64,000 nt of DNA from a virus: IMG/VR virus record IMGVR_UViG_3300038829_000263, positions 79,220 through 143,219 of that record; one strand, given 5' to 3'. This document shows positions 6,780-28,835 of this stretch, piece after piece (positions within the stretch are counted from its first letter, which is position 1; each line of letters opens with the position of its first letter). The notes under the pieces were generated by a model. It was not told the origin of the DNA and did no database searches. It saw nothing but the letters and a program-made list of their open reading frames with translations. Made by a program: the position numbers and the translations under genes.

Positions 6780-8621
6780 GTGGTCGCGCCATCGTTGCTA
6801 GTCGCCAAGATCGGCACAACGCCTCTTCGCGTGTTCAGGATGACGGGAGGGACCACCCTCACGCAGGTCGGCAGCGACGTGACCGGCTTGGCGTATGCCC
6901 CTGCCACCAACCACTGGGGATCTAACCAGGTCGTCGAGTACCGCGGCCGGCTCTACTTCGTCCACACCGGCGCGGGCAGCAACGCGATCGTGTCCAGGTA
7001 CAACCCGGTCACAGATGCCTGGGACATCGTATTCACGTCCCCCAACACGGCCACCGGGCAAGGCTCCGGCAAGCGCACCGGCCTGTTCATCGCCAACTTC
7101 CCCCCGCGGATGTTCTTCTTCGACTTCCAGGACGGGGTGGGAGACCGCCTCTTCTACACCGATGACGGCACCTCGTGGACCTCGGGCGCGACGATCTCGA
7201 CGACCGCCCAACTAGGTCGGGCCGTGTTGTACCGCAACAAGCTGTACATCCCCCGAACGTCGAACGTAATGGACATCGTCGATCCCGCGCTGAATACGAT
7301 CACGCGCATCAGCAACGTTGCTGCCTCCTCCCCGAACTCGGGCGGCATGTGCGTGTTCCGCAACCGCCTCTACCAGGTCGCGCAAGGGGGCTCCTCCGGC
7401 GACGACCAAGTCCTCTACGAGTTCACGGGCGGAGCGTGGGTCTCGCGCGCCACGCTCCTCGCCGTTTCGAGTGGAGCCGGCACCCCGGACGAGTGCTACG
7501 CCTTGGCCCCGATCGGCAACACGAAGATGGTGGCGATCACCATCGGGTCCACGGACGGCACGAACACGACGCGCGGCTCGCGCGCCTTCGACCTTACGCC
7601 GACCGGGCCCACGTCGTTCACCGTGACGGACGTCACGACCCCTGTCATCCCATCCGGCCTGCGCGCCCCGCAGACGGCGACCTCGCAGCGCTGGACGACC
7701 TTCGTGGACAACCAGACGAGCCCCGGGTCCCCTGCCGTGTTCTTCTGGCACCTGAGCAGCGCCACGGCGGGCACGTATTCGTACTACGAGTACGTGGATT
7801 CTTCGACTGAGCTATCGCCGGGTTCGGCTGGGCCCAACCAGGACGTCGTCGTCCCGTACCTGCCCAACGGAGGCGGGGACCGCATCTGGGATGGGTCGGG
7901 ATCCCTCGATGCCATCGCCACGAACGCCGTCGCCTCGCCGACCCTCGGCCACTCGCGGTTGACTGCGCTCTGCTCGGGCGACACGGCCGGGGCGGGCGGC
8001 ATGCGTACGTCGGTGCGCCTGGCGACGATCGCGGCCCTCCCGGCGAACACGCCGGCTGGGGCCGGCGTCGGCAAGACCCTCACCGGGAACGCTAACGGGG
8101 CGCTCTCGGTGGACGGGACAGCGGTGGTCAACGGCGACCGCATCCTCGTGAAGGATGAAGTCGCGGCGGCGAACAACGGCATCTATACGGTGACCGACCA
8201 GGGAAGCGGTGGCGCGCCTTTCATCCTCACGCGCGCGACCGACTTCGACCAGGTCTCCGCGACCGAAGTCGCGGCCGGGGCCTGGGTCCGTGTCACGGCC
8301 GGCGGGACCCTCTCGAACACGTTCTGGCAGATGAACCAGACGGCCACGATCACCATCGAGACGACGGCGCTCACCTGGGCCCAGCTCACGACGAGGTTCC
8401 TGCGCTTCTGGTACTCGCCCAACGAGAACGCGAACCTCGTCCAGGGGACGCTGGGCGGCACTCCTTCGGGCCAGGCCGGACAGCTCACGAGGAACGTGAA
8501 CACGATCGAGGGGGTCATCGCTGACGGGGCGACCACCTTCACGTTCGACTGGAATGCCGGGGGAGACGGGCAGCAGAACGGGGCCCCGGAGGGCGCCGCT
8601 CTACGGATCGGGACGACGTAG
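6780..8621 (+). CDS. Putative receptor-binding/fibre protein: beta-propeller-like N-terminus plus inserted fibre module
   Basis: Repeated blades (VEYRGRLYF, VLYRNKLYI, VFRNRLYQ); SVRLAT...GDRILVKD...NNGIY...LTRATDFD module. Confidence 0.7.
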   Translation: MVAPSLLVAKIGTTPLRVFRMTGGTTLTQVGSDVTGLAYAPATNHWGSNQVVEYRGRLYFVHTGAGSNAIVSRYNPVTDAWDIVFTSPNTATGQGSGKRTGLFIANFPPRMFFFDFQDGVGDRLFYTDDGTSWTSGATISTTAQLGRAVLYRNKLYIPRTSNVMDIVDPALNTITRISNVAASSPNSGGMCVFRNRLYQVAQGGSSGDDQVLYEFTGGAWVSRATLLAVSSGAGTPDECYALAPIGNTKMVAITIGSTDGTNTTRGSRAFDLTPTGPTSFTVTDVTTPVIPSGLRAPQTATSQRWTTFVDNQTSPGSPAVFFWHLSSATAGTYSYYEYVDSSTELSPGSAGPNQDVVVPYLPNGGGDRIWDGSGSLDAIATNAVASPTLGHSRLTALCSGDTAGAGGMRTSVRLATIAALPANTPAGAGVGKTLTGNANGALSVDGTAVVNGDRILVKDEVAAANNGIYTVTDQGSGGAPFILTRATDFDQVSATEVAAGAWVRVTAGGTLSNTFWQMNQTATITIETTALTWAQLTTRFLRFWYSPNENANLVQGTLGGTPSGQAGQLTRNVNTIEGVIADGATTFTFDWNAGGDGQQNGAPEGAALRIGTT

Positions 8622-9588
8622 CAGGGAGAGGGCGTGGCCGACTATCTCGGGCCAATTCAAGCGCTCGGCGTCCCGCTGCCGTCCGGGCAGTACCTGGGGC
8701 CGGCGCAGTTCATCTCGGCCCCCCTCATCGGGGAGCAGTTCCTCGGGCCCATCCAGGCTTTCCCGTGCCCGTTGCTCACCGAGCAATTCCTCGGGCCGGC
8801 GCAGTTCACGACGGTCGCCATCGTGTCCCCGCAGCATCTCTCTCCGATACAATTCTTCTTCCTGGAGGTTCGCGTGGCAGGCATCAAGGGCAAGCAGATC
8901 GCGACAGGGGCCGATGGCATCGCCACCGCGAACCTGGTCGATGGCGTCCTCTCCGCGAACGCGGCCGGCCGGGCCAAGATCGCGACCGGCTTCTTCGACC
9001 TGGCGACCGTGAACGACAAGTTCGCCGCGGCGAGCATCGCGCTCGACCGCCTGGCGGAGGCGGTCATCCAGGCGGACGGCGGCCAGGCGTTCACGGCCGA
9101 CCAGTCGATGGGCGGCTTCAAGCTCACGAACCTGGGCACGCCCACCGGCGCCCTCGACGCCACGAACAAGCAGTACGTCGACGGCGTCGCCTCGGGCATC
9201 GACTGGAAGCAGTCGGTCCGCCTGGCGACCGCCGCTGCCCTGCCGGCGAACACCCCCGCAGGCTCCGGCGTCGGCAAGACCCTCACGGCCAACGCGAACG
9301 GGGCCCTGTCGGTGGATGGCGTCGCCGTCGCCGTCGCTGATCGCGTCCTCGTGAAGAACGAGGCGGCCGGGGCCAACAACGGCATCTACACCGTCACGGC
9401 CACAGGGTCGGCCGGGGCGCCGTACGTGCTGACTCGCGCGACCGACTTCGACCAGGACGCCGAGGTCACGGCCGGCGCCGCCACCTTCGCCACCGAGGGG
9501 AGCACGCAGGCCGACACGGGCTGGGTCCTCATCACGAACGATCCCATCGTGGTCGACACGACGGCCCTCTCGTTCACGCAGTTCACGG
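8010..9588 (+). repeat. Duplicated ~125-codon fibre module (copies at ~8010-8390 and ~9213-9588)
   Basis: Near-identical peptide SVRLATxAALPANTPAGxGVGKTLTxNANGALSVDG...LTRATDFDQ in two adjacent genes. Confidence 0.9.
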
Positions 9589-10022
9589 GGACCGGCGCCC
9601 TCACGTTCGGGATGCCGGTCGCCGTCGGCACGGCCAACGCCGAAGGCGTGGCGACTACCGTCTCGCGCTCCGACCACGTGCACGACGCCCCGGCGCCTTC
9701 GACCCTGCGCAAGAGCGTGGCGCCCACGGTCACGAGCGGCAACTTCTCCTCTACGGGCATCACGGCCGGCTTCACCCCGGCCCTGGGCGGCCACGTGCGC
9801 GTGGTCGTGAACGGCGTGGAGTACCCCGTGGGCGACGGCAACCGCCTGGACCTCGGCGGCTTCACGAACAACGTCGTGGCGTACTTCTCGGCCGACGGCG
9901 GTGCGACCGCGAAGGCGATGAGCGCGATCGTCTCCACGGACACGCTCTACTGGAACGGCACGAACGCCGGCTTCAACCTGGCGGTCACCGACGAGGTCTC
10001 CATCCACGGCGAGGCGTTCTAG
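8634..10022 (+). CDS. Tail fibre/head-fibre-like structural protein (possible second in-frame start at 8874)
   Basis: LTNLGTPTGALDATNKQYVD and DWKQSVRLAT...RVLVKNE...NNGIY...RATDFD modules; SRSDHVH. Confidence 0.8.
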   Translation: MADYLGPIQALGVPLPSGQYLGPAQFISAPLIGEQFLGPIQAFPCPLLTEQFLGPAQFTTVAIVSPQHLSPIQFFFLEVRVAGIKGKQIATGADGIATANLVDGVLSANAAGRAKIATGFFDLATVNDKFAAASIALDRLAEAVIQADGGQAFTADQSMGGFKLTNLGTPTGALDATNKQYVDGVASGIDWKQSVRLATAAALPANTPAGSGVGKTLTANANGALSVDGVAVAVADRVLVKNEAAGANNGIYTVTATGSAGAPYVLTRATDFDQDAEVTAGAATFATEGSTQADTGWVLITNDPIVVDTTALSFTQFTGTGALTFGMPVAVGTANAEGVATTVSRSDHVHDAPAPSTLRKSVAPTVTSGNFSSTGITAGFTPALGGHVRVVVNGVEYPVGDGNRLDLGGFTNNVVAYFSADGGATAKAMSAIVSTDTLYWNGTNAGFNLAVTDEVSIHGEAF

Positions 10023-10963: not shown

Positions 10964-11059
10964 CCCCCCTGCCGCCTGTCCGGCATACTGGTGAGGCGGT
11001 GCGCGGCGAGTGGATCCGCCTCCCTCGCCGCGCACCGCCAAGCCTCTGGGAGGGACCCG

Positions 11060-12028
11060 GTGACGACGGCGACGCTCTACCGCGATGCGGACTACGGGGC
11101 CCTGGCCATCTACCCTGGGGCCAGCGGCCTCGTCACGATCGACCACGGGTTCCTGGCGGAGGACTTCGAAGCGGCCCTGTCCGTCCTCGAGCGCCACGGC
11201 AGGGGCGAGACGCAGCCCGGCCCGGGCGCGTGCCACTGGCGCCTGGAGAGCGCGCATCCCCTGCAGGTCATGGCCTCCGTCGATGCCGCGCTGCGCCTGC
11301 GCGGGTACGCCGACGACGCCCTTGGCGAACGCGCGATCCTGCGCGTCACGTCCCAGGAGGCCGCCCGGCCTGATTTCCCGGCGCCGGGAAAGTGGCCGTC
11401 CGGGGCCGACCTCGACGCACACGTTCGGGCGCTCATCACCCCAGCCCTGGCTGAGGCCGCGGGCGCACCCGTGCCTCAAGTGGCCGTGGCCGTCATGCCC
11501 CGCCCGAACTCGCAGGAGTCCGCCCCCTGGGCCCGCGCCCGGGCCCTGCTACCGGCCGGCGATGCCAAGGTCGTCCAGGAGCGCCTCCGGGCCGCCCTGG
11601 TCGGTCCCGTGCGCGAGATCCTGCGCCGGGCCACGGTGACCGCCTGCTCGCCCACCCTGCCCCATGGCCGGCTCCTGGCGGAGATCGCCCTCGCCATCCC
11701 CCGGGCCCTCTTGAACGAGTGGGAGAGCGCCATCCTCCCCGCCTTCCGGCCGGCCACGCACGGGTGGCGCCAGGTCTGGCTCAAGCGCGGCGAGAAGGAC
11801 GTCCCGGAGTCCTTGCTCTCCCGCGCCCGCGAGGGCGGGGCGATCGTGGGCGAGGCCCGACAGGGCCCGCGCGCTCTGGGCCTGCGCATCCCCTCGGCCA
11901 TGCCCGGGGACCACCTGGCGGACACGGCCTTCTCCGAGCGGCTCTGCTGGCTGACCGAGGCCCTGGGGGTGGAGCTCGTCGGCATCGACCCCTACCAGGA
12001 CTGGACCCCCGCCGCTGCCCACGAGTAG
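11060..12028 (+). CDS. Hypothetical protein
   Basis: GGGAGGG RBS before GTG 11060; codon bias. Confidence 0.7.
   Translation: MTTATLYRDADYGALAIYPGASGLVTIDHGFLAEDFEAALSVLERHGRGETQPGPGACHWRLESAHPLQVMASVDAALRLRGYADDALGERAILRVTSQEAARPDFPAPGKWPSGADLDAHVRALITPALAEAAGAPVPQVAVAVMPRPNSQESAPWARARALLPAGDAKVVQERLRAALVGPVREILRRATVTACSPTLPHGRLLAEIALAIPRALLNEWESAILPAFRPATHGWRQVWLKRGEKDVPESLLSRAREGGAIVGEARQGPRALGLRIPSAMPGDHLADTAFSERLCWLTEALGVELVGIDPYQDWTPAAAHE
11374..11391. repeat. Perfect 18-bp palindrome TTTCCCGGCGCCGGGAAA (dispersed motif)
   Basis: Self-reverse-complementary; variants at 30002, 43568 and 61053, weak copy at 1585. Confidence 0.8.
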
Positions 12029-12037
12029 CATGGGCGC

Positions 12038-15000
12038 ATGCCCATGCAGCCGCAAAACGAGACCTCCCGCGGCAGCCTTGCCTCCGTGACCCCGGGGTTC
12101 CTCGGGGCGACGCAGCGTGGGCGGCTCTCGGAGTTCGGCTGCGCGGGGTGCGGCTTCGCCATGCCGCGCTACCCCGGACGCTACCCCGCGGCCTGCCCCA
12201 AGTGCGGCGGGACGGTCGAGCGCCGCCAGGTGGCCGAGGCCGAGAAGATCCCCGGCGGGAAGGCGGCCGGCATGAAGCCGTCAGACTTCGACCCCGGGGC
12301 GCTCCTCGCCGGCATCCGGGTCGAGATGGAGCACACGAGCGACGCGGCCCTGGCGATGGAGATCGCGATGGACCACCTGGCGGAGGACCCGGCCTACTAC
12401 GACAAGCTCGCCACGATCCACCCGCCCGAGGAGGAGCCGGCCGAAGGCGGCGCGGGCTCGGGGTTCGTCGGCGCCCCGGACTACCCCTCCTGGCAAGGCG
12501 AGGGCGCCCCGATTCCGCTCGCCTCGCGCGCGTGCCGCATCCAGGCCCTCATCGAGGCCGGTGCGCAGGGGCGGTACCCCTACAACGCGGACCCCGACCG
12601 CTGCTCCCGCCCGCGCCGGCTCACGGCCGCCCAGGTCGAGGAGCTGTGCCCTGGCGGTGCGGCCGGCCTGCGGATGTTCCTCGAGCAGGGGAACCCCGAG
12701 AGCCGCTACTTCCGCATCGAGTCCCCGGCCGCCCCGGTGCTCATCTGCGAGTTCCACGTCGGCGGCGACCTCGTGATCTATGCGACCGTCGACCCCGTGA
12801 CTTACCTGGGCTTCGACCCGCGCCAGGAGCTCGTCTCGGAGTCCTCGCGCTGGCCGGGCACGGTCGACGTGCACGACCCCGGCCACGACATCATCGCGCG
12901 TATAGCCGGCGACAAGTTCCAGCTCGAGGACGTGAACACCTGGAAGGTCCACGGCTCTTGGCCGCTGTCCGACCTGATGAAGGACGACCCGATCAGGAAG
13001 GGCATCCGCCTGGCCGGGATCTTCCTGGACGCCTTCGTCGTCGAGCAGATCCTCCAGGCCGCCGGCGGCCGCTACCGCGAGTGGGCCAACCGCATCGTGG
13101 GCGCCATCCACGCGGCCGATGATGCGGCGCTCCGCCGGGGCCTGCGCGGCATGCGCGAGGGCGTGGACGAGGAGGTCATCAGGGCGTCGAAGGGCCTCGG
13201 TCTCTCGCGCGACGACCTCCCGCAGATCGACTCGGACAAGATCGACGACTTCCTGGAGTGGCTGCGCGTCCAGGGCATCGGCGTCTACCCGACCGAGGCC
13301 ACGGCGCGCCTTCTCCTGCCGTCCCAGGGCGAGCTGGAGTCCGACAAGATCGCCGCGATGGCGAAGGAGCCCGAGAAGCTCACGAAGGGGAAGATCATCA
13401 CGTCGGCCGACGGCTATGTGCTCGATGGCCATCATCGCTGGGCGGCCTACGTCGAGGTCTACCCCGAAGGCAACATGCCCGTCTGGCAAGTCCAGCTCGA
13501 CATCGTCACCCTCATCAACCTGGCGAAGCTGTTCCCAGGGGCGAAGGTGCGCGACATCTCCGGCAAGCGCGTGGCCGAGGCCGCTGACTCCAAGATCGCG
13601 ACGCGCCTTTCCTCGCTGGCCGCGCGACCGATGTGCCAGTTCAAGGGGCCTACCTGCGTCGGGCGCGCCTGGTGGAAGATGAACACGCCGCGCCCGTGGG
13701 GCGAGTTCGCCTGCTCGTCGTGCCTGACCGTCCTGGAGAAGGAAGCGGGCCTGGCGGAGGCCGTGAACCACGACATCGTGACGCGCGTCGTGAGCGCGAT
13801 GCGCCAGGCCAACTTGCAGCCGCGCTTCGAGGGCGGCATCGCTCCGACGCCCGACGTCGGCTACGTGCGCGCCATGGCCCTGGGCAACGTGGCGCTCGAG
13901 CTCGTGTTCGCGGGCGCGCGCCTCGTCTCCGCTTCGATCGTCCCCCCGGACGCCCCTGAGGACGACAAGGCTCAGATCCGCGCCGCGGTGATGGGCGTCC
14001 TCCCGAGCATGGCCGACATCGACTTGACCGAGAGCGCCGAGATGCCCTCGGAGCGCGAGCTGTCGGACCTGGCGACCGGCGCGACGGCAGTCACCAAGAG
14101 CGGCTCCGCGATCGAGTTCCGCTTCCCGCACGGCCGCTACGTTGAGATGGCCCACGACGCGATCCATGCGAAGTGGCCGCGCCTGGGCCTCCAGTTCTCG
14201 CAGTCGAAGAACGGGAACCCGGTCCTGATCGTCTCTCCGCCCTACGTGCCTCCGGTGCGCCGCCCGGACGCCCCGTTCTCGCTCGAGTTCTACGACGTGA
14301 GCCACGAGGGCGACGAAGCCCCCATCCTCCGTGACATCGCGGCCGCCGGCGGCAAGGTCGTGGGGCGGCACCGCTCCGGCGAGGAACTGTCGGTCGACAT
14401 CTCCGCCCCGGATGGCGAGGACGCGTTCATGGCGAAGTTCAAGCGCACGCGCTCGGCCTCGCGCCTGAACGAGGCGCGCCTGGAGGAGACGCGCTGGTCG
14501 CGCGCGGACCTGAACCGCCGGTTCAAGGGGCAGTACCACAACAAGGGCTTCGAGCTGCTCTACGGCGATGACCAGGCCGATGCCGGCGGCGGGCGCAAGC
14601 AGCCGCGCTACGCTGTCATCTCGACCTTCAAGTGGGTCGAGGCCCCGGTGAAGGGCGACTCCATCATGGACTACATGGACGAGATCGAGGCCGAGGCCCG
14701 CGACGCGATGATGGGGATGCGCGTCGTGGACGTGGGCGACGACTGGGCCGTGGTCGACATCGACTGGCGTGGGCTGGAGGAGGGCAACATGCCGGACGAC
14801 TACACTCCCTCCCAGGCCCGCGCCGCGATCCGCGGGATCATGGCCGCGCAGGAGAAGGGCGTCATCCCTGTCACGACCCAGGCCGTCGCGGCTTTCGGGT
14901 TCGGCAACCCGCGCTACACGGATCTCGCGCGCCAGGTGCTCTCGCGCCTCCAGGACCAGGGCTACGTCAGCTCCGACCGGGACCAGGGCTGGCATCTCTA

Positions 15001-16750
15001 CCAGTCGGCGAAGTACTGGCTGGCGGAGGCCGGCGGGAAGATCGTCCCCGGGGAAGGTCCCCAGGCCGGTGGCGGCGCCTGCCGCGCGGTCGGCGGCTTC
15101 CGGTTCGAGCTGGGCAAGTCGAAGAAGCGGAAGCCGCGGAAGGACGTGCAGCGCGCGATCCAGAACCGGCTCAACGCGAAGCGCGGGCTCGCGTCGCGCA
15201 TCTCGGCCGCGAAGAAGTGGCACCAGAGCTCCCAGGGCCGGCGCTACCACCGCGACCTCGGCCGCTACCTCCGCCAGGAGTCGTACTGGCCCCTGTTCGA
15301 GCGCGAGACGGAGTTCACGAACCGCTACCAGGCCCTCGGCCTCGCGGAGCCCGACCCGGCCACGATGTGCCTGGGCGCGTGTGAGGGCACGGGCATGGTC
15401 CCGGTGAACTACGCCCCTGCGAAGGCGGGTGGGATCGGCCCCGATCCCGACCTGACCTACAAGGCGGCCTGGGAAGCGGCCGAGGCCGCTAGCCCGGCGG
15501 AGGACGGATGGCACTTCGTGAAGTGCCTGGGCTGCGGCGGCTCGGGGAAGGCGACGCGCCTGAACGAGAGCCATCTGCCCCCGCTGGTAGGGTTGGACCG
15601 GGCTCGCCTGGCCGTCGAGGTGGAGCGCCGCTCGGGTCTGGACCGCGGACCGGCCGACGAGCGGCGGGTCCTCGCGGCCATCGCCGCGGTAGAAGCCGGC
15701 GACCTGAACAACCCTGACGCCGCCCTCAAGCGCCTGGTCTACGAGCTCTGGTTCTCGCTCAAGGACAACCCACTGCCTGGACTGCGCGAGGACGTGGGCG
15801 AGCGCACGGTCGATGACCGCTTCGACGAGTTCCTGCGCAAGCTCATCACGATCGAGTCGACGGACGTGCTGCAGGACGTCAACTTCACCGACGACGGCGG
15901 CATCTACCTCTTCTTCGACCCCTCGCTCTGCGGGCCCGACCTGGACGAGATCCTGATGGCGCTCCGTCAGGCCCAGGGCAGCGAGGGCGTCGAGATCGTC
16001 GGCACTCCCGACGAAGAGGACAGCGACTGGTGGGTGATCTTCTCCCCGCCGCCGACCGACTCGGCCGCGTGCGTCCCTGGCCAGGAGACACTGGACCAGC
16101 AGGCGGCGGGGGACGAGGTCCAGCCGGTCGATGGCGCGCCCGCGCCCCTGGCGAGCATGGCCGTGATGAAGCAGAACTCGGTCGACCGCCTGGCCATGAG
16201 CGTCGACATCCCGGCCCTGATGCAGGGCATCGATGGCGCCGAGGCGCAGAACGAGGCGACCGAGCGGGTCTACTACCGCATCAAGGTCGACGGCAAGTAC
16301 GTGGGTTCGCCCACGAACACCCGCACGGCGAACCCGAACCTCGCGGCGACCTGGGGGACGGACGAGCGCGACCAGGCCGAGAAGCTGGCCAAGCTCATCC
16401 CCGGCGCCGTCGTCGAGCCCTATCTCTACAAGAGCATGCTCAGCGAGTGCGGCGCGCACGGCCCTGTCATCCCCGAGGCGCTCCAGCCCCGCGAGGACGG
16501 CGTCGTCGTGCTCCTGTGGTCGGCCGTCGAGAGCCGCGTGCCCAGGTTCAAGGGCATTGCCTCGGGCGGCGCCGACCTTCACGGTCTCCGTGAGGCCGCT
16601 GCGCAGGGGAAGGGCACCCTGTTCCTCGTGCGTGCTCTGGGGGCCAGGGCCGCACGTGATACGATTCGTACTGGCAAGGGCCTGCACGAGATCGCACCCA
16701 ACGTCCTGACGAACGAGGTCGGCCTGGCGCACGTCCTCGCCGCGGAGTGA
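12038..16750 (+). CDS. Giant mosaic head-region protein (1570 aa): Zn ribbons, DUF5661-like, ParB/Srx-like, winged-helix, basic prohead-core-like and DnaJ-type Zn segments
   Basis: CAGC..CPKCG; GIRVEMEH...IAMDHLAEDPAYYDKL; LPQID...PSQGE...YVLDGHHRWAA; LSRLQDQGYV; CLGACEGTG..CLGCGGSG. Confidence 0.85.
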   Translation: MPMQPQNETSRGSLASVTPGFLGATQRGRLSEFGCAGCGFAMPRYPGRYPAACPKCGGTVERRQVAEAEKIPGGKAAGMKPSDFDPGALLAGIRVEMEHTSDAALAMEIAMDHLAEDPAYYDKLATIHPPEEEPAEGGAGSGFVGAPDYPSWQGEGAPIPLASRACRIQALIEAGAQGRYPYNADPDRCSRPRRLTAAQVEELCPGGAAGLRMFLEQGNPESRYFRIESPAAPVLICEFHVGGDLVIYATVDPVTYLGFDPRQELVSESSRWPGTVDVHDPGHDIIARIAGDKFQLEDVNTWKVHGSWPLSDLMKDDPIRKGIRLAGIFLDAFVVEQILQAAGGRYREWANRIVGAIHAADDAALRRGLRGMREGVDEEVIRASKGLGLSRDDLPQIDSDKIDDFLEWLRVQGIGVYPTEATARLLLPSQGELESDKIAAMAKEPEKLTKGKIITSADGYVLDGHHRWAAYVEVYPEGNMPVWQVQLDIVTLINLAKLFPGAKVRDISGKRVAEAADSKIATRLSSLAARPMCQFKGPTCVGRAWWKMNTPRPWGEFACSSCLTVLEKEAGLAEAVNHDIVTRVVSAMRQANLQPRFEGGIAPTPDVGYVRAMALGNVALELVFAGARLVSASIVPPDAPEDDKAQIRAAVMGVLPSMADIDLTESAEMPSERELSDLATGATAVTKSGSAIEFRFPHGRYVEMAHDAIHAKWPRLGLQFSQSKNGNPVLIVSPPYVPPVRRPDAPFSLEFYDVSHEGDEAPILRDIAAAGGKVVGRHRSGEELSVDISAPDGEDAFMAKFKRTRSASRLNEARLEETRWSRADLNRRFKGQYHNKGFELLYGDDQADAGGGRKQPRYAVISTFKWVEAPVKGDSIMDYMDEIEAEARDAMMGMRVVDVGDDWAVVDIDWRGLEEGNMPDDYTPSQARAAIRGIMAAQEKGVIPVTTQAVAAFGFGNPRYTDLARQVLSRLQDQGYVSSDRDQGWHLYQSAKYWLAEAGGKIVPGEGPQAGGGACRAVGGFRFELGKSKKRKPRKDVQRAIQNRLNAKRGLASRISAAKKWHQSSQGRRYHRDLGRYLRQESYWPLFERETEFTNRYQALGLAEPDPATMCLGACEGTGMVPVNYAPAKAGGIGPDPDLTYKAAWEAAEAASPAEDGWHFVKCLGCGGSGKATRLNESHLPPLVGLDRARLAVEVERRSGLDRGPADERRVLAAIAAVEAGDLNNPDAALKRLVYELWFSLKDNPLPGLREDVGERTVDDRFDEFLRKLITIESTDVLQDVNFTDDGGIYLFFDPSLCGPDLDEILMALRQAQGSEGVEIVGTPDEEDSDWWVIFSPPPTDSAACVPGQETLDQQAAGDEVQPVDGAPAPLASMAVMKQNSVDRLAMSVDIPALMQGIDGAEAQNEATERVYYRIKVDGKYVGSPTNTRTANPNLAATWGTDERDQAEKLAKLIPGAVVEPYLYKSMLSECGAHGPVIPEALQPREDGVVVLLWSAVESRVPRFKGIASGGADLHGLREAAAQGKGTLFLVRALGARAARDTIRTGKGLHEIAPNVLTNEVGLAHVLAAE

Positions 16751-20384: not shown

Positions 20385-21422
20385 ATGGCCGAGATCGGCT
20401 ACAGCTTCAACGGGATCGGCCTCGCCGAGGCGCAGGACAGGGTCAACGAGCACCGGACGGGCGTCCCGAGCAAGGGCCTGATGGCGCTCCTGCAGCGCAC
20501 CATCGGCATCCGCCGGACGTCCAAGGTCGGCGTCGCGAACACCGGCCGCGCGGCGGCCCACGTGCGCCTGCGGCACCAGGGCCTCGAGCGGACCATCGCG
20601 GCCGAGGCCCTGGCGGCCCTGAACGTGCCGGCGACGAACCGCTTCGTCGGGCGGCTCCAGTTCGGCGCGATCACGCCGGGCTCGATCGTCGTCACCGAGG
20701 CCGGCGCCCTGGCCGACATCGTGGACGACGGCCTCGGGAAGCTCTACGACATCGGGTTCGTGGGCGTCGCGGCCAACTTCCGCGGGACGATCAACTACGT
20801 CACGGGCGCCCTGGACGTGACCTTCGGCGCGGCCTTCACGGCGCCCGTCACGATCGCCTACCGGCACTCCGACTACGTGGACTTCGCCTCCGCGAACCAG
20901 ATCGTGTCCGGCCCCGCGGGCGCGCTCCCCTACACCCTCCAGCTCCCCTTCGGGCGCGTGGTGCCGGGCAGCGTGTCGCTCACCGACGGCGTCTCCACCT
21001 GGGTGGACGACGGCAAGGGCAACATGATCCAGGCGAACCTGGCGCGCGGCACGATCGACTACGCCGCCGGCATCGTCGTCCTGAACACGGGCCCGGCCGT
21101 CGCGGCCCCGCTGACCGCCGCGTCGGTGATGCAGTACAACCCGTTCGCCGCGCTCGTGGCCGCGGGCGGTGGCCAGAAGCTGCTCGACATCTTCTCCCAG
21201 ATCCCCGAGCTCACGAACGGGCCCTGGGCGGCGGGCGTGGACAGCGAGACCCGGCTCGGCCTCGTGGGCGAGTCGAACGTCCTGGCCCTGGCCACGGACC
21301 TCGTGGTCCAGTGGTCGCACTACGGCGAGGAGCCGTACCGGGTGGACGAGGTGTTCTCGGGCTTCCCGCCCGGCGGCTTCTCGAACGACCCCAACGTGGA
21401 CCAGGCGGTCGCCCACCTGTAA
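20385..21422 (+). CDS. Virion structural protein with two PG[ST]..DDGxG..I[DN]Y modules
   Basis: AGGAGG RBS; ITPGS..DDGLG..GTINYVTG and VVPGS..DDGKG..GTIDYAAG. Confidence 0.8.
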   Translation: MAEIGYSFNGIGLAEAQDRVNEHRTGVPSKGLMALLQRTIGIRRTSKVGVANTGRAAAHVRLRHQGLERTIAAEALAALNVPATNRFVGRLQFGAITPGSIVVTEAGALADIVDDGLGKLYDIGFVGVAANFRGTINYVTGALDVTFGAAFTAPVTIAYRHSDYVDFASANQIVSGPAGALPYTLQLPFGRVVPGSVSLTDGVSTWVDDGKGNMIQANLARGTIDYAAGIVVLNTGPAVAAPLTAASVMQYNPFAALVAAGGGQKLLDIFSQIPELTNGPWAAGVDSETRLGLVGESNVLALATDLVVQWSHYGEEPYRVDEVFSGFPPGGFSNDPNVDQAVAHL

Positions 21423-22389: not shown

Positions 22390-22836
22390 ATGGCTGTCCG
22401 TGTCCCCCTGCCGCGCTACGCCGACCTCCCCAAGGTCGTGCTGTTCCATCGCGCGCACCCGACGGACCCGACGGTCATCCTCCAGCTACCGAACGAGGAC
22501 CGGACGGACTCGGAGACGTACCGCCTGGACCTCGAGCGCGAGGGCGACCGCGGGTGGATCGAGGGGCTTCCCGGCGGCCGGGACGTGCTCTACAAGCTGA
22601 CGATGGAGATGCACATCGCCTACGAGCCGGCGACCGGCGGCATGCGCGCCATCGCGGACCTGGACGAGCCCACCATGCGCCAGCAGGAGATCGCGCTCGC
22701 GCGCCTGGAGGCGTCCCGCACGGCCAACGGCGCCCAGCGCTCGACGCTCCGCTCCCGGCGCCACGTTCCCCCACCGTCGACGTTCCGCCTGGGCCTCATG
22801 CTCGGGCAGGAGCCGCTCAGGAGGGCACCCCTGTGA
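22390..22836 (+). CDS. Hypothetical protein
   Basis: ATG 22390; overlaps the protease start. Confidence 0.7.
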   Translation: MAVRVPLPRYADLPKVVLFHRAHPTDPTVILQLPNEDRTDSETYRLDLEREGDRGWIEGLPGGRDVLYKLTMEMHIAYEPATGGMRAIADLDEPTMRQQEIALARLEASRTANGAQRSTLRSRRHVPPPSTFRLGLMLGQEPLRRAPL

Positions 22837-25800
22837 GCGTGGAACTCCTGACCCCGTCCGTGGCGCGGCTCCTGCTCGCGGAGCAGCGCAACGCCCCTCA
22901 GCGGATCGAGCTCCGCGAGACCTTCTCCGTCGACCCGCGCGCCCTGACCGAGGGCGCGAAGGGGAACATCACGGAGCTGGCCGACGGGCGCTTCCGCGTC
23001 CGGTGCAAGGGCCAGCACTGCGGCCTCGTCAACCGGAACAACCGGCGCTACGAGACGAAGAAGACGTGGGGCAGGCACACGCTCCCGGAGAGCGTGTTCA
23101 TGCGCCGGGTCAAGTCCCGCCGCGTCGTGGGCCAGCTCGAGCACCCCCCGGAGGGACGCGGGGGCATGGGCCTCGGTGCGATCGTCGTCACGGAGGTCGA
23201 AGCCCCGAACGCCCAGGGCGAGGTCTGGATCACGTTCGAGACGATGTCGACGCCCGACGGGCGGATCGCCGAGTCGTACATCCGCGACGGCGTCGGCTTC
23301 GGCGTCTCCTCGCGCGGACACGGGTCGGTCGTCCGCGGCGTGGATGGCGTGGACGACGTGCAGGAGGACTACGAGCCGGGCGCCTGGGACTGCGTGCTCG
23401 ACGAGTCGACCCCTGGCTCCGAGGTCGTGTCGCAGAAGCTCCGGGAGAGCCGCAAGGCGCTCCTCGAGTCGGTGGGCGGCGATGAGGCGAAGGCCCGCGA
23501 GCTGTGCCGGATCGAGACCGAGTCCGCCCTGGCGCGCATGTTCCCCACGGCGCCCGCGGCCGCCCAGGAGAAGAACGTGACCGAGGCCGAGGCTGGCGAC
23601 CCGTCGACCGGCGGCGTGGACGACGAGATGCCCCCGACCGGCGCGAACGAGTTCCTCCTGGCGCTGCCCGACGGCGCAGGCCACTACCGCGCCTACGACA
23701 ACTCCATCAACCAGTGGGACGTCTGGCTGGAGATCCACAACCTCGCGCCGAAGCGGATCGCGAAGGCCCTGCAGACCCTCGCGGCCGCGAAGGCGGCGGC
23801 CGAGGCCCACGCCCAGTACGTGGTCGGCGCCGCCATGACCGAGGCGGCCAAGCAGGACCCGAACGCCCGGCGTGCGCTCCGTGCGGCCCTTCGCGACGCC
23901 ATGCGCGCCCAGGCCGAGGCCGCGACGAAGAAGCCCGTCACCGAGGACGCGGAGGAAGTCGCTGCGGTCCCCTTCACGGGCACGTGCGTCTGGCTGCGCG
24001 ACTTCGACTCGGCGTCCGAGGCCGAGAAGGCGATGAAGGCCCTGGAGGCCGCCGGCTTCCACGTCGAGCAGGACGACTGCTGCGTGTCCGTCCAGACCGG
24101 CTACACGGACGCCCTCCAGGCCATCGAGCACATCAAGCGCGTGCTCGGGATGAAGGACATCGCCATCGACGAGGTGCGTGTCGTACGCCATGGCAAGACC
24201 GTCTGGGCTGACCGGCTCAGCGAGGCCCTGCCGGGCGATCCCACGCCCCAGGTCGGGGACATCGCCTACGACGGCGGCGCGGAGTACGTCATCACGAGGA
24301 TCGACGCGGCGAAGGGCCTGGCCTACGCCACGCACCCGCGCTACGGCGACCGGACGTTCTACATGCCGGCCACGCAGCGCGGGCAGAACTACGGGTTCTG
24401 GCCGCGGCACGACAAGATCCGCGGGAAGCAGGCATGGGGCCATCAGGACCGCCCGCGCGTCTGGGGTCCGCTGGGCTTCGACGAGGCGATCAACACGCTC
24501 CCGTCCGTGGCCGACCAGCCCCAGACGTCCGTCCCCCAAGCCGAGGACGACGAGCTCGATCACTTCCCCTTCGACCTGGACGACGAGCCCTGCGGGCTGG
24601 AGATCCTGGGCGACGACCCCTACGAGGAGAACGGCATGGGCCCCACCGCACCCGCGTCCTTCGGCGCCTCCGACTTCGGCGAGATGGGCATCTACGACAA
24701 CGGCGACATGGACGGTCTCCCCATGCCCCCGATGGAGATGGCAGAGCCGGAGGAGCCCATGTCCCAGGCGACCTACGCCGAGATGAAGGCCAAGATGGAG
24801 ATGCACCGCGCCGGCTACATGGAGATGCGCGGCCAGATGGAGCGCATGCGGCGCGGCATGTCCGAGGCCGAGGGCGGCTCTGGCTACCCGGCGGCCCTTC
24901 CTCTCGACGATCCCGAGGACCTGGACCACGACCTCGACTGGGTGAACGCGCCCAAGATCGACGTGGGCGTGGCCGAGGCCGAGGGGAACGGCAACGGGAA
25001 GAACGGGAAGAACGGGAAGAAGGACGACGAGGAGGAGAAGGACAAGGACAAGAAGAAGGACGAGGCCAAGCGCCAGGCCGTGTACTACTCCCGTGTCCCT
25101 CGTCCCATGGCCGAGGGCAAGCGCCCTGCTGGCCACGCGCGCCTGTACTTCACGGAGAAGGACGAGCTCCTGGGCCTGGCCGAGTTCAACGAGCAGGGCA
25201 AGTGCGTGGCGAAGTCCGGGATGCGCGAGGGCAAGCTCGTGCCCATCGGCAAGGGCACGCCCCCGACCCCCGCGAAGGTCCACGAGTCCCACAAGGGGTT
25301 CGTGAAGGGCTGCGGCCTGTGCGAGGAAGTCACGCGCCGTGAGCAAGCGGCGCTCGTGGCCCGCCGCAAGGCGGCCGTGGCGGAGGCGGCCAGGCTCGTC
25401 GGCATCGCGCCGGCCGCTGCCCCGGCGAAGCCCTCGCTCACCGAGATGACGAAGGACGCCCAGGACTTCATCGGGCGGGAGATCGCCCACCTGGTGAAGG
25501 ACAAGGGCTACGAGCAGGACCGTGCCGTGGCGGCGGCCTACAACATCGCCCGTGAGAAGGGCTACTCCGTGCCCACGGCGCCCAAGGACGAGGCCGCGGT
25601 CAAGGCCATCGCCGGCAAGACGCTCATGGAGCACTCGACGCCCGCCGGCGAGGTCGTGGCGCTGCGCAAGCGCACCTCCTACCTCCAGGAGGAGGTCACG
25701 CGTCTCGAGCGCGAGAAGGCGCAGATGACGGACCTCGTGAACACGATGTCGTCGGTCCAGCGGGCCGCGCTCACGGAGGCCGAGATCAAGCGCGTGGTCC

Positions 25801-26321
25801 AACTCCACCCGGAGCTCGGGCGCATCAAGGAGCGCCTGGACAAGGCCAAGAGCCCGGCCGAGGTCGTGGCGGAGGCCAACTTCGCGCTCGGCCTCCTGGG
25901 CAAGCCGCTCATCCCGGTGACCGAGGCGGCGCCCAAGCCGGCCCCTGCCCCCAAGCCCGCGGCCGCGCCGAAGCCCGCCCCCCAGAAGCCCGCCCCCCAG
26001 AAGCCCGCCGCTCCCCCGGCGCCCATGACCGAGGCGTCGACGAAGCCGGCGGCCCCCGCGAAGCCGCCCGCCCAGACCCCCGCCCAGGCGCCTGCCCAGG
26101 CCCCCGCACCGACGAACGGCGCGACTCCGGCTGGTGCACGTGCTAAGGTGGGGACGACCGCCGTGGAGAGCCTGGCCGTGCCGGACGCTCCCGGAGGTCC
26201 GCTGACCGAAGCGGAGGAGGCGGCCTTGCTCGGTGGCGGAGAACTCACGGAGGCGTCCCTGGCGACGGGGACCATGAGTCGCGTTGCGGCCTACAGGCGT
26301 AGGGCGCGGGGCGAGAACTAA
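22833..26321 (+). CDS. T4 gp21-type prohead protease fused to a ~950-aa scaffold/cargo extension
   Basis: AGGAGG RBS; VNRNNRRY, GQLEHP (His), TPDGRI..GVSSRGHGSV (Ser), WDCVLDESTPGS (Asp); C-terminal coiled coil immediately before the capsid gene. Confidence 0.9.
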   Translation: MSVELLTPSVARLLLAEQRNAPQRIELRETFSVDPRALTEGAKGNITELADGRFRVRCKGQHCGLVNRNNRRYETKKTWGRHTLPESVFMRRVKSRRVVGQLEHPPEGRGGMGLGAIVVTEVEAPNAQGEVWITFETMSTPDGRIAESYIRDGVGFGVSSRGHGSVVRGVDGVDDVQEDYEPGAWDCVLDESTPGSEVVSQKLRESRKALLESVGGDEAKARELCRIETESALARMFPTAPAAAQEKNVTEAEAGDPSTGGVDDEMPPTGANEFLLALPDGAGHYRAYDNSINQWDVWLEIHNLAPKRIAKALQTLAAAKAAAEAHAQYVVGAAMTEAAKQDPNARRALRAALRDAMRAQAEAATKKPVTEDAEEVAAVPFTGTCVWLRDFDSASEAEKAMKALEAAGFHVEQDDCCVSVQTGYTDALQAIEHIKRVLGMKDIAIDEVRVVRHGKTVWADRLSEALPGDPTPQVGDIAYDGGAEYVITRIDAAKGLAYATHPRYGDRTFYMPATQRGQNYGFWPRHDKIRGKQAWGHQDRPRVWGPLGFDEAINTLPSVADQPQTSVPQAEDDELDHFPFDLDDEPCGLEILGDDPYEENGMGPTAPASFGASDFGEMGIYDNGDMDGLPMPPMEMAEPEEPMSQATYAEMKAKMEMHRAGYMEMRGQMERMRRGMSEAEGGSGYPAALPLDDPEDLDHDLDWVNAPKIDVGVAEAEGNGNGKNGKNGKKDDEEEKDKDKKKDEAKRQAVYYSRVPRPMAEGKRPAGHARLYFTEKDELLGLAEFNEQGKCVAKSGMREGKLVPIGKGTPPTPAKVHESHKGFVKGCGLCEEVTRREQAALVARRKAAVAEAARLVGIAPAAAPAKPSLTEMTKDAQDFIGREIAHLVKDKGYEQDRAVAAAYNIAREKGYSVPTAPKDEAAVKAIAGKTLMEHSTPAGEVVALRKRTSYLQEEVTRLEREKAQMTDLVNTMSSVQRAALTEAEIKRVVQLHPELGRIKERLDKAKSPAEVVAEANFALGLLGKPLIPVTEAAPKPAPAPKPAAAPKPAPQKPAPQKPAAPPAPMTEASTKPAAPAKPPAQTPAQAPAQAPAPTNGATPAGARAKVGTTAVESLAVPDAPGGPLTEAEEAALLGGGELTEASLATGTMSRVAAYRRRARGEN

Positions 26322-26360: not shown

Positions 26361-27809
26361 GTGATCGCAACTCGTGAGATGGCGCGGCGGTCTCGGATGC
26401 TGACGGACCGCCTGGTCGACAAGCACAGGGCCCTGGTGAAGAAGTACGAGAGCTTCTCGCTCCCGGAACTCGACATCAAGGGACTCAACCCGATGGAGAT
26501 CCTGGAGACGGGTCCCAACCGGGAGAAGGACCCGCTCAAGGCGTACAAGTGCGCCCGCCTGATGGAGAACTTCGTCCAGGCGGCGATGCGCCAGGGCACG
26601 ATCGACGAGACCTCGCGCGCCTCGCTGCCCGCCTGGATCAAGTCGGGCCTCGCGCTGATCGCGGCCGCCCAGGCCGACGACCAGACCGACATGGTCATCT
26701 CCGACCAGCCGCTCTCCTCGCGCAACGGCCGCATCCACTACCTGGACGTGGTCAGCGAGCGCGCCAAGGGCCAGATCGGTGACCGGACGAAGCTGTTCGA
26801 CGCCCTGGCCGGGTTCCGCGGGACGCAGGACTTCACGTCCGAGAACATCGAGAACGAGCGCCTGTCCGGCCCCGGCGGCGCGACGTTCAACGTGTCCCTG
26901 GGCTACTCGCCCGTCATCCCGGGCACGCTGCTGCTGACCGACGGCACGCAGCAGGTCCGCGACGACCGCAACGGCAACCTGGTCGGCGACGTGGGCGCGC
27001 CCGGCGGCGGGTTCACGAACACGATCGACTACCTGACGGGCGCCGTATCGGTGCGCCTGGCGGTGGCGGCCGCGGGCGATGTCCGCGTCAGCTACCAGTA
27101 CAACATCGAGGCGTCGCTCGTCCTGCCCGAGTACGGCATCCTGCTCCGCGCCGAGGCAGTCCAGGCCCGGCCGCGCGCGCTCGGCGCGTCGTGGTCGCAC
27201 CAGGCCGTCATGGACTTCATGAACGACTACGGCATCGACGCCGAGCCGACCATCATCGAGGCCGGCGCGCGCCTGATCGCCCAGGAGAAGTTCAAGCACG
27301 TCGTCAACACCCTGCGCCAGAACGCGACGGGCGGCTCGATCCTGTTCGACAACACGGCCCCGACGGGCGTGTCGTACCGGGACCACCTCAAGACGTTCTC
27401 GCTCTACCTGAGCCGCCTCCAGGACCTCATCTGGGAGGCGACCCAGCTCGTCCGCCCGAACCGGATGGTGATCCACCCCTCGATCCTCTTCATCGTCGCG
27501 TTCCAGGACGGGTTCGAGGGCGTCAAGTTCGCCAACGACGGCATCGCCGGCCCGCGCTACGTCGGCCGCCTCGCGCGGCACGACATCGACGTGATCGCCG
27601 ACCCGACGTTCCCGCGCGACGAGTTCGTGCTCACCCACCGCGGCCAGGAGTTCGTCTCCACGGCGGCGGTCATGGGGACCTACGTGCCGCTCTACAAGAG
27701 CCCGGTGCACGTGCGCGGGTTCCGCAAGGACTTCGCGCTGCTGACCGAGTACGTGCTCAAGATCATCAACTCGAACCAGATCGGCACGGGCAAGGTCATC
27801 AACCTTTGA
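26361..27809 (+). CDS. Major capsid protein, T4 gp23 type, with inserted beta module
   Basis: QPLSSRNGRIHYLD and VQARPRALGASWSHQAVMDFMNDYGIDAE match gp23 blocks; follows the protease/scaffold gene. Confidence 0.92.
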   Translation: MIATREMARRSRMLTDRLVDKHRALVKKYESFSLPELDIKGLNPMEILETGPNREKDPLKAYKCARLMENFVQAAMRQGTIDETSRASLPAWIKSGLALIAAAQADDQTDMVISDQPLSSRNGRIHYLDVVSERAKGQIGDRTKLFDALAGFRGTQDFTSENIENERLSGPGGATFNVSLGYSPVIPGTLLLTDGTQQVRDDRNGNLVGDVGAPGGGFTNTIDYLTGAVSVRLAVAAAGDVRVSYQYNIEASLVLPEYGILLRAEAVQARPRALGASWSHQAVMDFMNDYGIDAEPTIIEAGARLIAQEKFKHVVNTLRQNATGGSILFDNTAPTGVSYRDHLKTFSLYLSRLQDLIWEATQLVRPNRMVIHPSILFIVAFQDGFEGVKFANDGIAGPRYVGRLARHDIDVIADPTFPRDEFVLTHRGQEFVSTAAVMGTYVPLYKSPVHVRGFRKDFALLTEYVLKIINSNQIGTGKVINL

Positions 27810-27817
27810 TAGCCTAT

Positions 27818-27876
27818 TCTTGACCTTCTCTGCGGCTATCGCTATCATGCGGTAGCCGTAAGGCAGGAGGTCAAGA
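27818..27876 (+). promoter_or_regulatory. Promoter TTGACC-N17-TATCAT embedded in a hairpin that sequesters the downstream RBS
   Basis: -35 at 27820-27825, -10 at 27843-27848; 27818-27829 pairs with 27865-27876 and 27831-27842 pairs with 27849-27860. Confidence 0.8.
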
Positions 27877-28835
27877 TGGCCAATCGAAGGGCGCTCACGG
27901 ACGAGCAGGAAGCCCAGCTCGCCCGGGACTACGAGAACGGTGACGGTCAGACGATCCTTGCCCGGCGCTACGGCGTCGGGCAAGTGACCGTACGGGCGGC
28001 TCTCGCCCGCCAGGGCGTGAAGCAGCGGTCCCTGGGCGAGGCCAACGCGCCCAAGGCGGACCCGGCCGAGATAGTCCGGCTCTACCGCGACGAGGGCCTC
28101 AAGACGGAAGAGGTCGCGGCGCGGTTGGGCGTTTCCGAGGCCACGGTGTTGAAGTTCACGCAGCGCGCGGGAGCCTCCCGGCCGAAGCGTGTGCGCTACA
28201 GGTTCGATCGCGCGTTCTTCGATGAGGTCGACGACACCCGGGCGTACTGGGCTGGGTTCATCGCGGCTGATGGTTGCATCACCGGGAACTCGGTCAACAT
28301 CGGGCTGGCGAAGAAGGACCGTGGGCACCTAGAGCTGCTGCAGAAGGCGGCGCAACTCGAGCAGCCCATCCGGGAGCACAAGACTACGCAGGGGCACGAC
28401 GCGGTTTATCTGGGGGTCACGTGCCCGGAGTGGGTCGCGGCCCTGCGCGATACCTACGCGCTCCGGGGAGTTCCCGGCGGGAAAGCAGTCAACTTAGTGG
28501 GGCCTCCGCGCCTGGCGGCCGCGATGCGTCTCCCATTCCTGCGTGGCTTCTTCGACGGAGATGGCTCGGCCGATCCCAGCGGGGCCGTAATCTTCACGAC
28601 TGCGTCGAGCGCGTTCTCGTTGTGGATCCAGTCCGTGTTCGGGCCGCCGTCCCGTATCTACGATCAATCGTGGACAGACTCGCGGGGGGCCGTTCATCCT
28701 GCATTCCAGTTGCGCTACGGCATCCGCGATGCCACGGCCCCTCTCGTGGCGCGCCTGCTCTACGCTGGTTCGACGCCCGAGACCCGGCTCGCCAGGAAGC
28801 ACGCGCGGCTGCTACGCTGGCTCTCGCCGGCGTGA
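27876..28835 (+). CDS. Free-standing LAGLIDADG homing endonuclease with N-terminal HTH repeats
   Basis: AYWAGFIAADGCI and FLRGFFDGDGS; HTHs QTILARRYGVGQVTV and TEEVAARLGVSEATV; relaxed codon bias. Confidence 0.92.
   Translation: MANRRALTDEQEAQLARDYENGDGQTILARRYGVGQVTVRAALARQGVKQRSLGEANAPKADPAEIVRLYRDEGLKTEEVAARLGVSEATVLKFTQRAGASRPKRVRYRFDRAFFDEVDDTRAYWAGFIAADGCITGNSVNIGLAKKDRGHLELLQKAAQLEQPIREHKTTQGHDAVYLGVTCPEWVAALRDTYALRGVPGGKAVNLVGPPRLAAAMRLPFLRGFFDGDGSADPSGAVIFTTASSAFSLWIQSVFGPPSRIYDQSWTDSRGAVHPAFQLRYGIRDATAPLVARLLYAGSTPETRLARKHARLLRWLSPA

Follow-up and report, generated by a model that had tools for sequence, protein, structure and literature searches.

The open reading frame (ORF) at positions 12038 to 16750 of the plus strand encodes a protein of 1570 amino acids (aa) inside the head module of an uncultured phage, a T4-type myovirus. 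The window analysed here is the final 64 kb of the 143,219-bp IMG/VR virus record IMGVR_UViG_3300038829_000263. The initial annotation of the window, made by a model from the letters alone, had taken the ORF as one long gene, and this gene is genuine: a single frame is open throughout, the GC content by codon position fits a real gene, and GC at third codon positions (GC3) is 0.94 in a genome of 70% GC. We favour, with somewhat better than even confidence, the reading that its product is a modular internal head protein, composed of a carrier and cassettes, which is cut in trans by the phage's S77 prohead protease at sites in the linkers. Cleavage into numerous small proteins within the capsid is probable, to judge from the sequence, because the small domains of the product are joined by linkers that bear the recognition motif of the phage's own head protease. 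The observations behind this reading are a modular architecture, a conserved position in the head module, the presence of the protease, a coincidence of the motif with domain junctions at which it is conserved, and the movement of cassettes among relatives.

The family was defined by an exhaustive HMMER search with residues 520-1570, and all retrieved proteins were then remapped onto the full ORF. About 40 to 50 metagenomic representatives of 429 to 1734 aa were obtained (protein numbers beginning with P, loci with L). Common to them were four collinear core blocks: B1, a Zn ribbon (residues 7-67), B2 (150-268), the very basic B3 (998-1088) and B4 (1252-1405). A fifth block, B5 (1471-1570), was common to the closest relatives only. 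In total, the ORF consists of at least 10 separate homology blocks and of segments without homologues, i.e., of several disparate domains, as polyvalent proteins do. The initial annotation had described a string of unrelated blocks; the separate blocks were confirmed, but four of them form a conserved core, and not all are unrelated cargo.

Domain boundaries were examined by structure prediction. The AlphaFold model of a minimal member (P0025, 485 aa, 24-sequence alignment) contained four domains with predicted local distance difference test (pLDDT) scores of 80-97 and linkers below 50, with a predicted template modelling score of 0.34. The pLDDT was 80-90 for B1, 92-97 for B2, 79-91 for B3, which was modelled as a beta-hairpin with helices, and 91-96 for B4. 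As modelled, the minimal member is a string of beads, with separable domains and disordered linkers. The single-sequence AlphaFold model of residues 1-1200 had a mean pLDDT of 36.5 and was uninformative on the boundaries within 575-997, because B1 to B3, which were confident with an alignment, failed in it too. Two MAFFT alignments of whole homologues against the halves of the ORF (A2 and A3) were discarded for folding; they were largely misaligned because the block order differs among homologues. A search of the ESM Atlas with B4 gave no usable match.

The motif [LIVM]xE occurs 31 times in the ORF, and 12 of these sites lie on homology-block edges (after residues 67, 268, 374, 514, 574, 812, 915, 997, 1088, 1177, 1251 and 1470). 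All of these but 1088 were among 13 boundary sites listed initially, and the 11 edges concerned are defined by homology independently of the motif. The two remaining sites on that list fared differently. RLSE/F at 32 (the slash marks the putative cut) lies inside the Zn-ribbon block but does not share in its conservation or in that of the leader that it ends; the first conserved site is that at 67, after the Zn ribbon. DLTE/S at 665 is spanned by no homologues. The site at 1088 (PLFE/R) is an additional edge site that had been missed. The step in homology coverage averaged 1.01 at [LIVM]xE sites compared with 0.51 over all positions (P ~0.002), while other Glu residues, [LIVM]xD, [LIVM]xR and [AG]xE were at the random level and not significant. 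Motif sites thus exceeded chance at homology steps when boundary position was tested against composition.

Two further tests were anchored on conserved residues and are independent of coordinates picked at motif sites. Within 25 aa after the DPR that ends B2, [LIVM]xE was present in 31/31 representatives, compared with 15.2 expected from shuffled windows. Within 25 aa before the conserved start of B4, it was present in 27 of 36, compared with 11.2 expected. Ahead of B4, in linker sequence that otherwise cannot be aligned, the Glu forms a near-invariant column of alignment A4, and 23 of the 24 sequences have [LIVM] at P3.

The gp21-type protease that had been placed at 22833 was confirmed by Pfam (PF03420, Peptidase_S77), with 30.5 bits against a cut-off of 27 and an E value of 3e-7. 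The motifs LEHP and GxSSRGxGS were invariant in the protease domain of four relatives and were followed by invariant LDE/S and [LV][LV]E/S. The His of LEHP and the Ser of SSRG are presumably catalytic, as in T4 gp21, and with these motifs invariant the enzyme looks intact. Neither the protease domain nor the 1570-aa ORF had a match among PDB sequences by phmmer. No peptidase domain was found in the ORF itself by Pfam (E up to 1) or PHROGs, where remote homology is still possible, so any processing would be in trans. The protease is fused to an extension of about 900 aa with 21 [LIVM]xE[ASG], compared with 5.1 expected (z 7.6), mostly of the form [LVM]-[TA]-E-A. The extension probably represents a gp22-like scaffold made as a single polypeptide with the protease.

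The same motif was frequent in other products of the head module. The second mosaic gene, which adjoins the ORF's family in all relatives checked for synteny, had 17 [LIVM]xE[ASG] compared with 7.5 expected (z 3.7), together with acidic and PAPA linkers, and its homologue in L011 had 22 compared with 6.6 (z 6.2). In the gp23-type major capsid protein (MCP), a conserved [ILV]-[DT]-E/T-SRASLPAW junction was located near residue 83, just before the mature N-terminal region (alignment with L006-L008). Small head-module proteins had N-termini resembling a capsid-targeting sequence (CTS), e.g., MAE/IGYSFNGIGLAE/A. This motif enrichment across the head module is the pattern expected if the S77 enzyme, like T4 gp21, cuts after Glu with a hydrophobic residue at P3. 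A 345-aa head-module protein encoded at 20385-21422 has weak similarity to the MCP, is possibly a vertex paralogue, and has three [LIVM]xE within its first 22 residues (MAE/IGYSFNGIGLAE/AQDRVNE/H).

Free-standing homologues of the inserts began and ended at the same sites. P0060 starts MA-ARLVEGK, and its A3 aligned to A813 of the query, the residue directly after RLNE812. P0016 starts exactly at the GMRE/G site ahead of its ParB-like block. Among stand-alone proteins that consist of the Zn-finger block, the N-termini projected to 1086-1091 in 18 of 30 and the median C-terminus to 1177, an exact match to the stretch from PLFE/R to RLNE/S (1089-1177).

The content of the slots between core blocks differed among relatives. 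In this ORF the inserts are DUF5661, residues 269-374, the ParB-like block, the four-Cys block, four segments with no or one homologue, the Zn finger and residues 1178-1251. In relatives the same slots held a LigT/2H domain (P0021), a NUDIX domain (P0055), a Zeta-toxin-type kinase (P0049) or an AAA ATPase (P0109), and [LIVM]xE was found 5-40 residues away on both sides of the LigT, NUDIX and Zeta-kinase inserts. The syntenic relative P0018 (1036 aa, L011) is without the Zn-finger and 1178-1251 blocks and has a short linker with TLAE/D between B3 and B4; VIE/G, LTE/S and LAE/D delimit the segments (about 95 aa) that are unique to it. A different block of 140 aa, flanked by QVKE/S and AVRE/S, lies between the ParB-like and Cys blocks of P0099. 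The ParB-like block precedes B2 in some members, follows B3 in others and lies between the two in still others, and in L016 it is the C-terminal module of the second mosaic gene. The comparison of homologues at the sites therefore showed modules to be acquired, lost and relocated, even from one of the two adjacent genes to the other. In the region L020:80-12786, a 2678-aa ORF with B3 and DUF5661 is followed by an 872-aa ORF with B4 and then by an ORF with the ParB-like block, so the same modules are split over three genes in another lineage.

The identity of the inserts bears on the possibility that the protein is mainly a component of the prohead core or scaffold, like T4 gp22, gp67 and gp68, whose pieces exit before DNA packaging and deliver no effectors. 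Its gene lies in a morphogenesis module beside the second mosaic gene and the protease-scaffold fusion, both rich in sites; conservation of the four core blocks across the lineage is what an assembly role predicts; and fragments of cleaved T4 core proteins do exit the head (PMC5694885). We nevertheless consider a role in assembly only to be unlikely. The variable inserts (ParB-like, 2H/LigT, NUDIX, Zeta kinase) are enzyme and nucleic-acid-binding types typical of injected effectors, proteins with the same Zn-finger block contain Acb1 and ART-PolyVal domains, and folded fragments of 9-24 kDa would hardly pass the capsid pores.

Several results weigh against serial cleavage of the protein. Over the whole ORF, the motif count was raised only mildly: there were 31 [LIVM]xE compared with 23.8 expected from shuffles (z 1.7), and 13 [LIVM]xE[ASG] compared with 6.2 (z 2.95; genome background mean z 0.34, standard deviation 1.3). 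Two relatives, P0018 and P0021, showed no such excess (z 0.9 and 0.2, respectively). Enrichment in linkers, which the initial annotation had proposed as a check, was found in part: structured and linker columns of alignment A4 had the same density per residue, at 2.0 per 100 aa, but junction windows were enriched, with 4.3 [LIVM]xE per 100 aa against 1.46 in interiors (42 representatives), in windows anchored at coordinates picked at motif sites of the query and thereby biased toward enrichment. The homologues are also non-independent samples in the motif statistics. The ORF has no [LIVM]xE at the junction of DUF5661 and B2, just 5 of 24 members have one in the linker between B4 and the C-terminus, and several [LIVM]xE are conserved within domains, e.g., LREAAA in B5. 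No relative of the core blocks was found in cultured phages by blastn and tblastn, and the core model had no Foldseek match in PDB or BFVD at E <=0.001, only generic ferredoxin-like ones. The conserved core may also serve head assembly instead of an attack on the host.

The unraised totals in relatives and the equal density in domains and linkers would also suit packaging, and perhaps injection, of the polyvalent head protein in intact form, with its linker motifs kept for structure or docking or used for end-trimming only. Some polyvalent proteins, the N4 virion RNA polymerase among them, are packaged unprocessed (PMC5512222). This explanation is improbable in view of the conservation of the motif within otherwise unalignable linkers, the match of its positions to the termini of free-standing homologues, and the heavy enrichment of the same motif in the extension fused to the protease. 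The positions of the sites are much more telling than their counts.

The coincidence of motif and junction might instead be a by-product of composition, in which acidic flexible linkers lie beside hydrophobic domain ends in a plain long multidomain protein. At the junction windows of the 42 representatives, Glu alone was raised 1.65-fold and E-x-[LIVM] likewise 1.96-fold. Around Zn-finger blocks embedded in diverse giant proteins the increase was modest, only about 1.5-fold, with sites in 23 of 41 upstream (16.0 expected) and in 24 of 50 downstream (15.6 expected). The shuffle-controlled counts after B2 and before B4 are not accounted for in this way, the controls [LIVM]xD (0.98-fold at junction windows) and [KRDN]xE were flat, and hydrophobic control motifs were depleted in linkers, to one half in alignment A4, where [LIVM]xE was not. 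Composition is therefore the least probable of the explanations considered.

The context of the gene favours a protein of the virion. The structural module has the order portal (upstream of the window), fibre- or decoration-like proteins, a 345-aa gene, the ORF, the 1078-aa second mosaic gene, three small genes, the S77 protease, the gp23-type MCP, an adaptor, sheath, tape measure and baseplate. The order of g345, the ORF's family, the second mosaic family, g110, an MCP-like g345, g297 and the S77 protease was kept in L011, L016, L017/18 and L019, and the shorter loci L013 and L015 retain whatever parts of it they can hold. The late or packaging gene context that is characteristic of polyvalent proteins was thus found, with portal, S77 protease, gp23-type MCP and sheath close by and synteny conserved. 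A non-virion multifunctional late protein, engaged in DNA handling or expression control and only incidentally near the head genes, would be in line with DNA-binding types of domain and with core blocks that have no direct homology to structural proteins. It is nonetheless very unlikely, as the head-module synteny is conserved in at least 6 independent contigs, the ORF overlaps the next mosaic gene in the manner of translational coupling, and a homologue of the ParB-like block is annotated, by similarity, as a virion structural protein.

Other genes of the module were noted along with the features listed below. The first 345-aa gene had no family match. The closest capsid proteins were <30% identical. 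The gene immediately 3' of the major capsid gene (27876-28835), for an HNH or DNA-binding endonuclease-like protein, was probably inserted into the structural module as a homing endonuclease. At 6780-10022, two neighbouring genes (613 and 462 aa) have a common domain that matches head-decoration/tail-fibre PHROGs (phrog_30390, phrog_2647).

Features of the ORF and its neighbours in the window (residue numbers refer to the 1570-aa product; HSP, high-scoring segment pair)
Feature	Position	Strand	Evidence or relatives
345-aa gene	10991..12028	+	Precedes the ORF in every relative (tblastn synteny L011, L013, L015, L019)
Residues 1-32, N-terminal leader, [DN]E[TR]xR..T.GMA conserved	12038..12133	+	Alignment A4, N-terminus listing
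Residues 33-67, core B1 Zn ribbon CxxC..YPGRYP..CPxC, ends QVAE/A	12134..12238	+	>20 representatives
Residues 68-149, DUF5661 insert and acidic/Gly linker	12239..12484	+	PF18905
Residues 150-268, core B2, alpha/beta, ends ..DPRQELVSE/S	12485..12841	+	33 homologue HSPs
Residues 269-374, ends GMRE/G	12842..13159	+	Common only to syntenic relative P0018 (BLASTP HSP q7-505)
Residues 375-514, ParB/Srx-like DGHHR block, ends RVAE/A	13160..13579	+	phrog_2859, 5e-24
Residues 515-574, four-Cys block CxFKGPxC..CSSC, ends GLAE/A	13580..13759	+	Common to P0099, P0017
Residues 575-812, split at DLTE/S into 575-665 and 666-812, ends RLNE/A	13760..14473	+	No homologues
Residues 813-915, ends GLEE/G	14474..14782	+	P0060 homologue, BLASTP 50% identity, E 3e-27
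Residues 916-997, ends WLAE/A	14783..15028	+	No homologues; initial label 'winged helix' unconfirmed
Residues 998-1088, core B3, GGFRF..QNxxNARRGLA..WH..YN, ends PLFE/R	15029..15301	+	~46-50 HSPs
Residues 1089-1177, DnaJ-CR-like Zn-finger block, ends RLNE/S	15302..15568	+	~95 HSPs
Residues 1178-1251, ends GLRE/D	15569..15790	+	Missing from P0018
Residues 1252-1470, core B4 (1252-1405) and tail, ends MLSE/C	15791..16447	+	50 HSPs
Residues 1471-1570 and stop, block B5	16448..16750	+	Closest relatives (alignment A5)
Second mosaic gene, 1078 aa	16747..19983	+	GTG start overlaps stop of the ORF (GTGA)
S77 (T4 gp21-type) prohead protease with ~900-aa scaffold-like extension	22833..26321	+	PF03420, phrog_207
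gp23-type MCP	26361..27809	+	Pfam Gp23, 1.3e-15

Most of the blocks described initially were confirmed as separate units. The leader, which had low pLDDT in the P0025 model and ends at RLSE/F, is a candidate capsid-targeting segment. The CxxC..CPxC of the N-terminal Zn ribbon is present in the sequence. DUF5661 (PF18905, residues 91-126) scored 33.5 bits, above the gathering threshold of 27, and was found in only some relatives; it was the sole Pfam match above threshold in the whole ORF, as phrog_2859 was the sole PHROGs match. Word-indexed homologue searches likewise retrieved only proteins sharing DUF5661 and none for residues 575-1000. The DGHHR block labelled ParB/Srx-like matched phrog_2859, and the second Cys cluster had a homologue in P0099. 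The block described as very basic and rich in K and R corresponds to B3, with an isoelectric point of 11.4. The signature of B4 is DD..LRKLI..LQDV.F..YLFFDP..DWWV. An Smr domain (PF01713) was considered for the C-terminus and rejected, with 14 bits against 25.7 and with the DLHG-like residues not conserved in B5 homologues.

The ParB-like block contains the motif VLDGHHRWAA, but no Pfam ParBc (PF02195) match was found at E up to 1. Proteins of about 150 aa that consist of this block alone are encoded by Ackermannviridae and by T4-like phages of Aeromonas. The homologue in the Ackermannviridae record inspected is annotated as structural by similarity to a Limestone 'unknown structural protein'; the virion proteome of LIMEstone1 has been determined by electrospray ionization tandem mass spectrometry (ESI-MS/MS) (PMC3296691).

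The Zn-finger block had about 95 representative homologues, many of them complete proteins of 85-130 aa and others parts of giants of 1500-2600 aa. It had been called DnaJ-type. Two copies of the CxxCxGxG type are present in the sequence, but there was no Pfam DnaJ_CXXCXGXG match, and the block represents a widespread family of its own. A stand-alone copy is encoded at L004:6469-6741. In L005:7627-9904, a MuF-type-like head ORF has an N-terminal part with an intein-like end (...GMIVHNC), and the Zn-finger block lies further downstream. The giants with this block (P0059-P0163) carried NUDIX (6), Zeta toxin (4), ATP-dependent DNA ligase (3), LigT/2H (2), Acb1 anti-CBASS (cyclic-oligonucleotide-based antiphage signalling system) (2) and ART-PolyVal (1) domains.

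On the reading that we favour, the protein would be made late, alongside the other head-module genes, and would enter the prohead core. Its conserved carrier (leader plus Zn ribbon, B2, basic B3 and B4) would be interleaved with exchangeable cargo cassettes. The S77 protease would cut in trans after Glu at exposed [LIVM]-x-E in the disordered linkers and release about a dozen folded fragments of a predicted 3.4-24 kDa, one of them very basic and several of them Zn-binding or directed at nucleotides. Any pieces that remain inside the head, for instance basic B3 and cargo that targets DNA or nucleotides, would be ejected with the DNA at infection and might act against the host; retention in the head and injection are suggested by analogy with T4 and by the domain types. 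New cargo could be gained through in-frame insertion between two sites. Tentatively, and with rather less than even confidence, the two adjacent head-module genes may form, in a lineage of uncultured phages with T4-type heads, a dedicated 'carrier plus cassette' system, in which any in-frame module between [LIVM]-x-E linkers is co-packaged through one targeting signal and released by the protease.

Real cuts would mean that the T4-type head protease, besides taking off propeptides and removing the scaffold, frees a whole series of small modules, DNA-binding ones and enzymes, from a single precursor. Nature would then offer a parallel to the CTS packaging that has been engineered in T4. It would explain a fast change of the injected anti-defence cargo, one insertion between two linkers being sufficient, and would identify a conserved carrier and a possible targeting signal of unknown fold. 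If the carrier-plus-cassette arrangement holds, the injected arsenal could evolve by insertion of cassettes and by swapping between the two genes, and the system would be a DNA-phage counterpart of the viral polyprotein strategy, the maturation protease doubling as a polyprotein protease. Provided that the cuts are real, motif-bounded blocks in head-module giants would offer a simple rule for the metagenomic discovery of injected effectors.

Polyvalent proteins combine 2-15 functionally disparate domains in a polypeptide, are encoded among late or packaging genes and are predicted to be packaged and delivered with the DNA (Iyer, Burroughs, Anand, de Souza, Aravind 2017; PMC5512222). The ORF resembles them in joining many disparate small domains in one polypeptide among late and packaging genes. 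Its domains also appear to overlap with the polyvalent network: a ParB/Srx-like block is in the ORF itself, 2H in P0021, and ART-PolyVal and Acb1 in the giants that contain the Zn-finger block. For polyvalent proteins, processing by an embedded zincin-like metallopeptidase has been proposed (PMC5512222), whereas no embedded metallopeptidase or other peptidase was detected in the ORF, and processing in trans by the S77 enzyme at motif-marked linkers is proposed here. The four-block carrier of the ORF is not among the described polyvalent families. A full-text literature search joining polyvalent proteins with prohead proteases gave nothing relevant beyond PMC5512222. Processing of such a polyvalent or internal head protein in trans, by the protease that matures the capsid, would therefore appear to be new, as would the conserved carrier, which has not been described before.

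In T4, gp21 removes CTS propeptides ending in L-x-E or I-x-E from Alt and the internal proteins, which are later injected (PMC9026906, PMC5694885), and gp22, gp67 and gp68 are cleaved into fragments (PMC5694885). The ORF shares with T4 IPI, IPII, IPIII and Alt a gp21-type protease, a gp23-type capsid, the [LIVM]xE motif, small predicted products that are in part basic, and cargo that varies among relatives. In size, the predicted fragments match or come close to the T4 internal proteins (~8-20 kDa). Each T4 cargo, however, is encoded by a separate gene, has its own CTS of 10-20 residues and is cut once, whereas the many modules of the ORF are on one polypeptide with presumably one targeting signal and a dozen proposed internal cuts.

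In the giant phages phiKZ, 201phi2-1 and SPN3US, a diverged gp21-type protease (gp175/gp245) cuts many proteins of the head interior after x-x-E (PMC10052503, PMC5694885), and multiple cuts are possible within one protein, as is proposed for the ORF. The motif there is (A, S or G)-x-E (PMC10052503) and not [LIVM]xE, and the cuts remove or fragment N-terminal propeptides instead of separating serial folded functional domains. The Dar proteins of P1 (DarA, DarB, DdrA and DdrB) are likewise capsid-internal anti-defence cargo tied to head morphogenesis, and DdrB, as relayed in PMC5512222, has a ParB-type domain and is processed before packaging. They are separate proteins and involve a different protease, and their likeness to the ORF rests on the shared ParB/Srx-type motif. 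Finally, MuF/SPP1 gp7-type proteins are head-internal carriers with swappable passengers, and the Zn-finger block found here is at the C-terminus of the MuF-like L005 ORF. The 1570-aa ORF is without a MuF domain, and MuF proteins carry one C-terminal passenger in place of the protease-separated series that is proposed for this phage.

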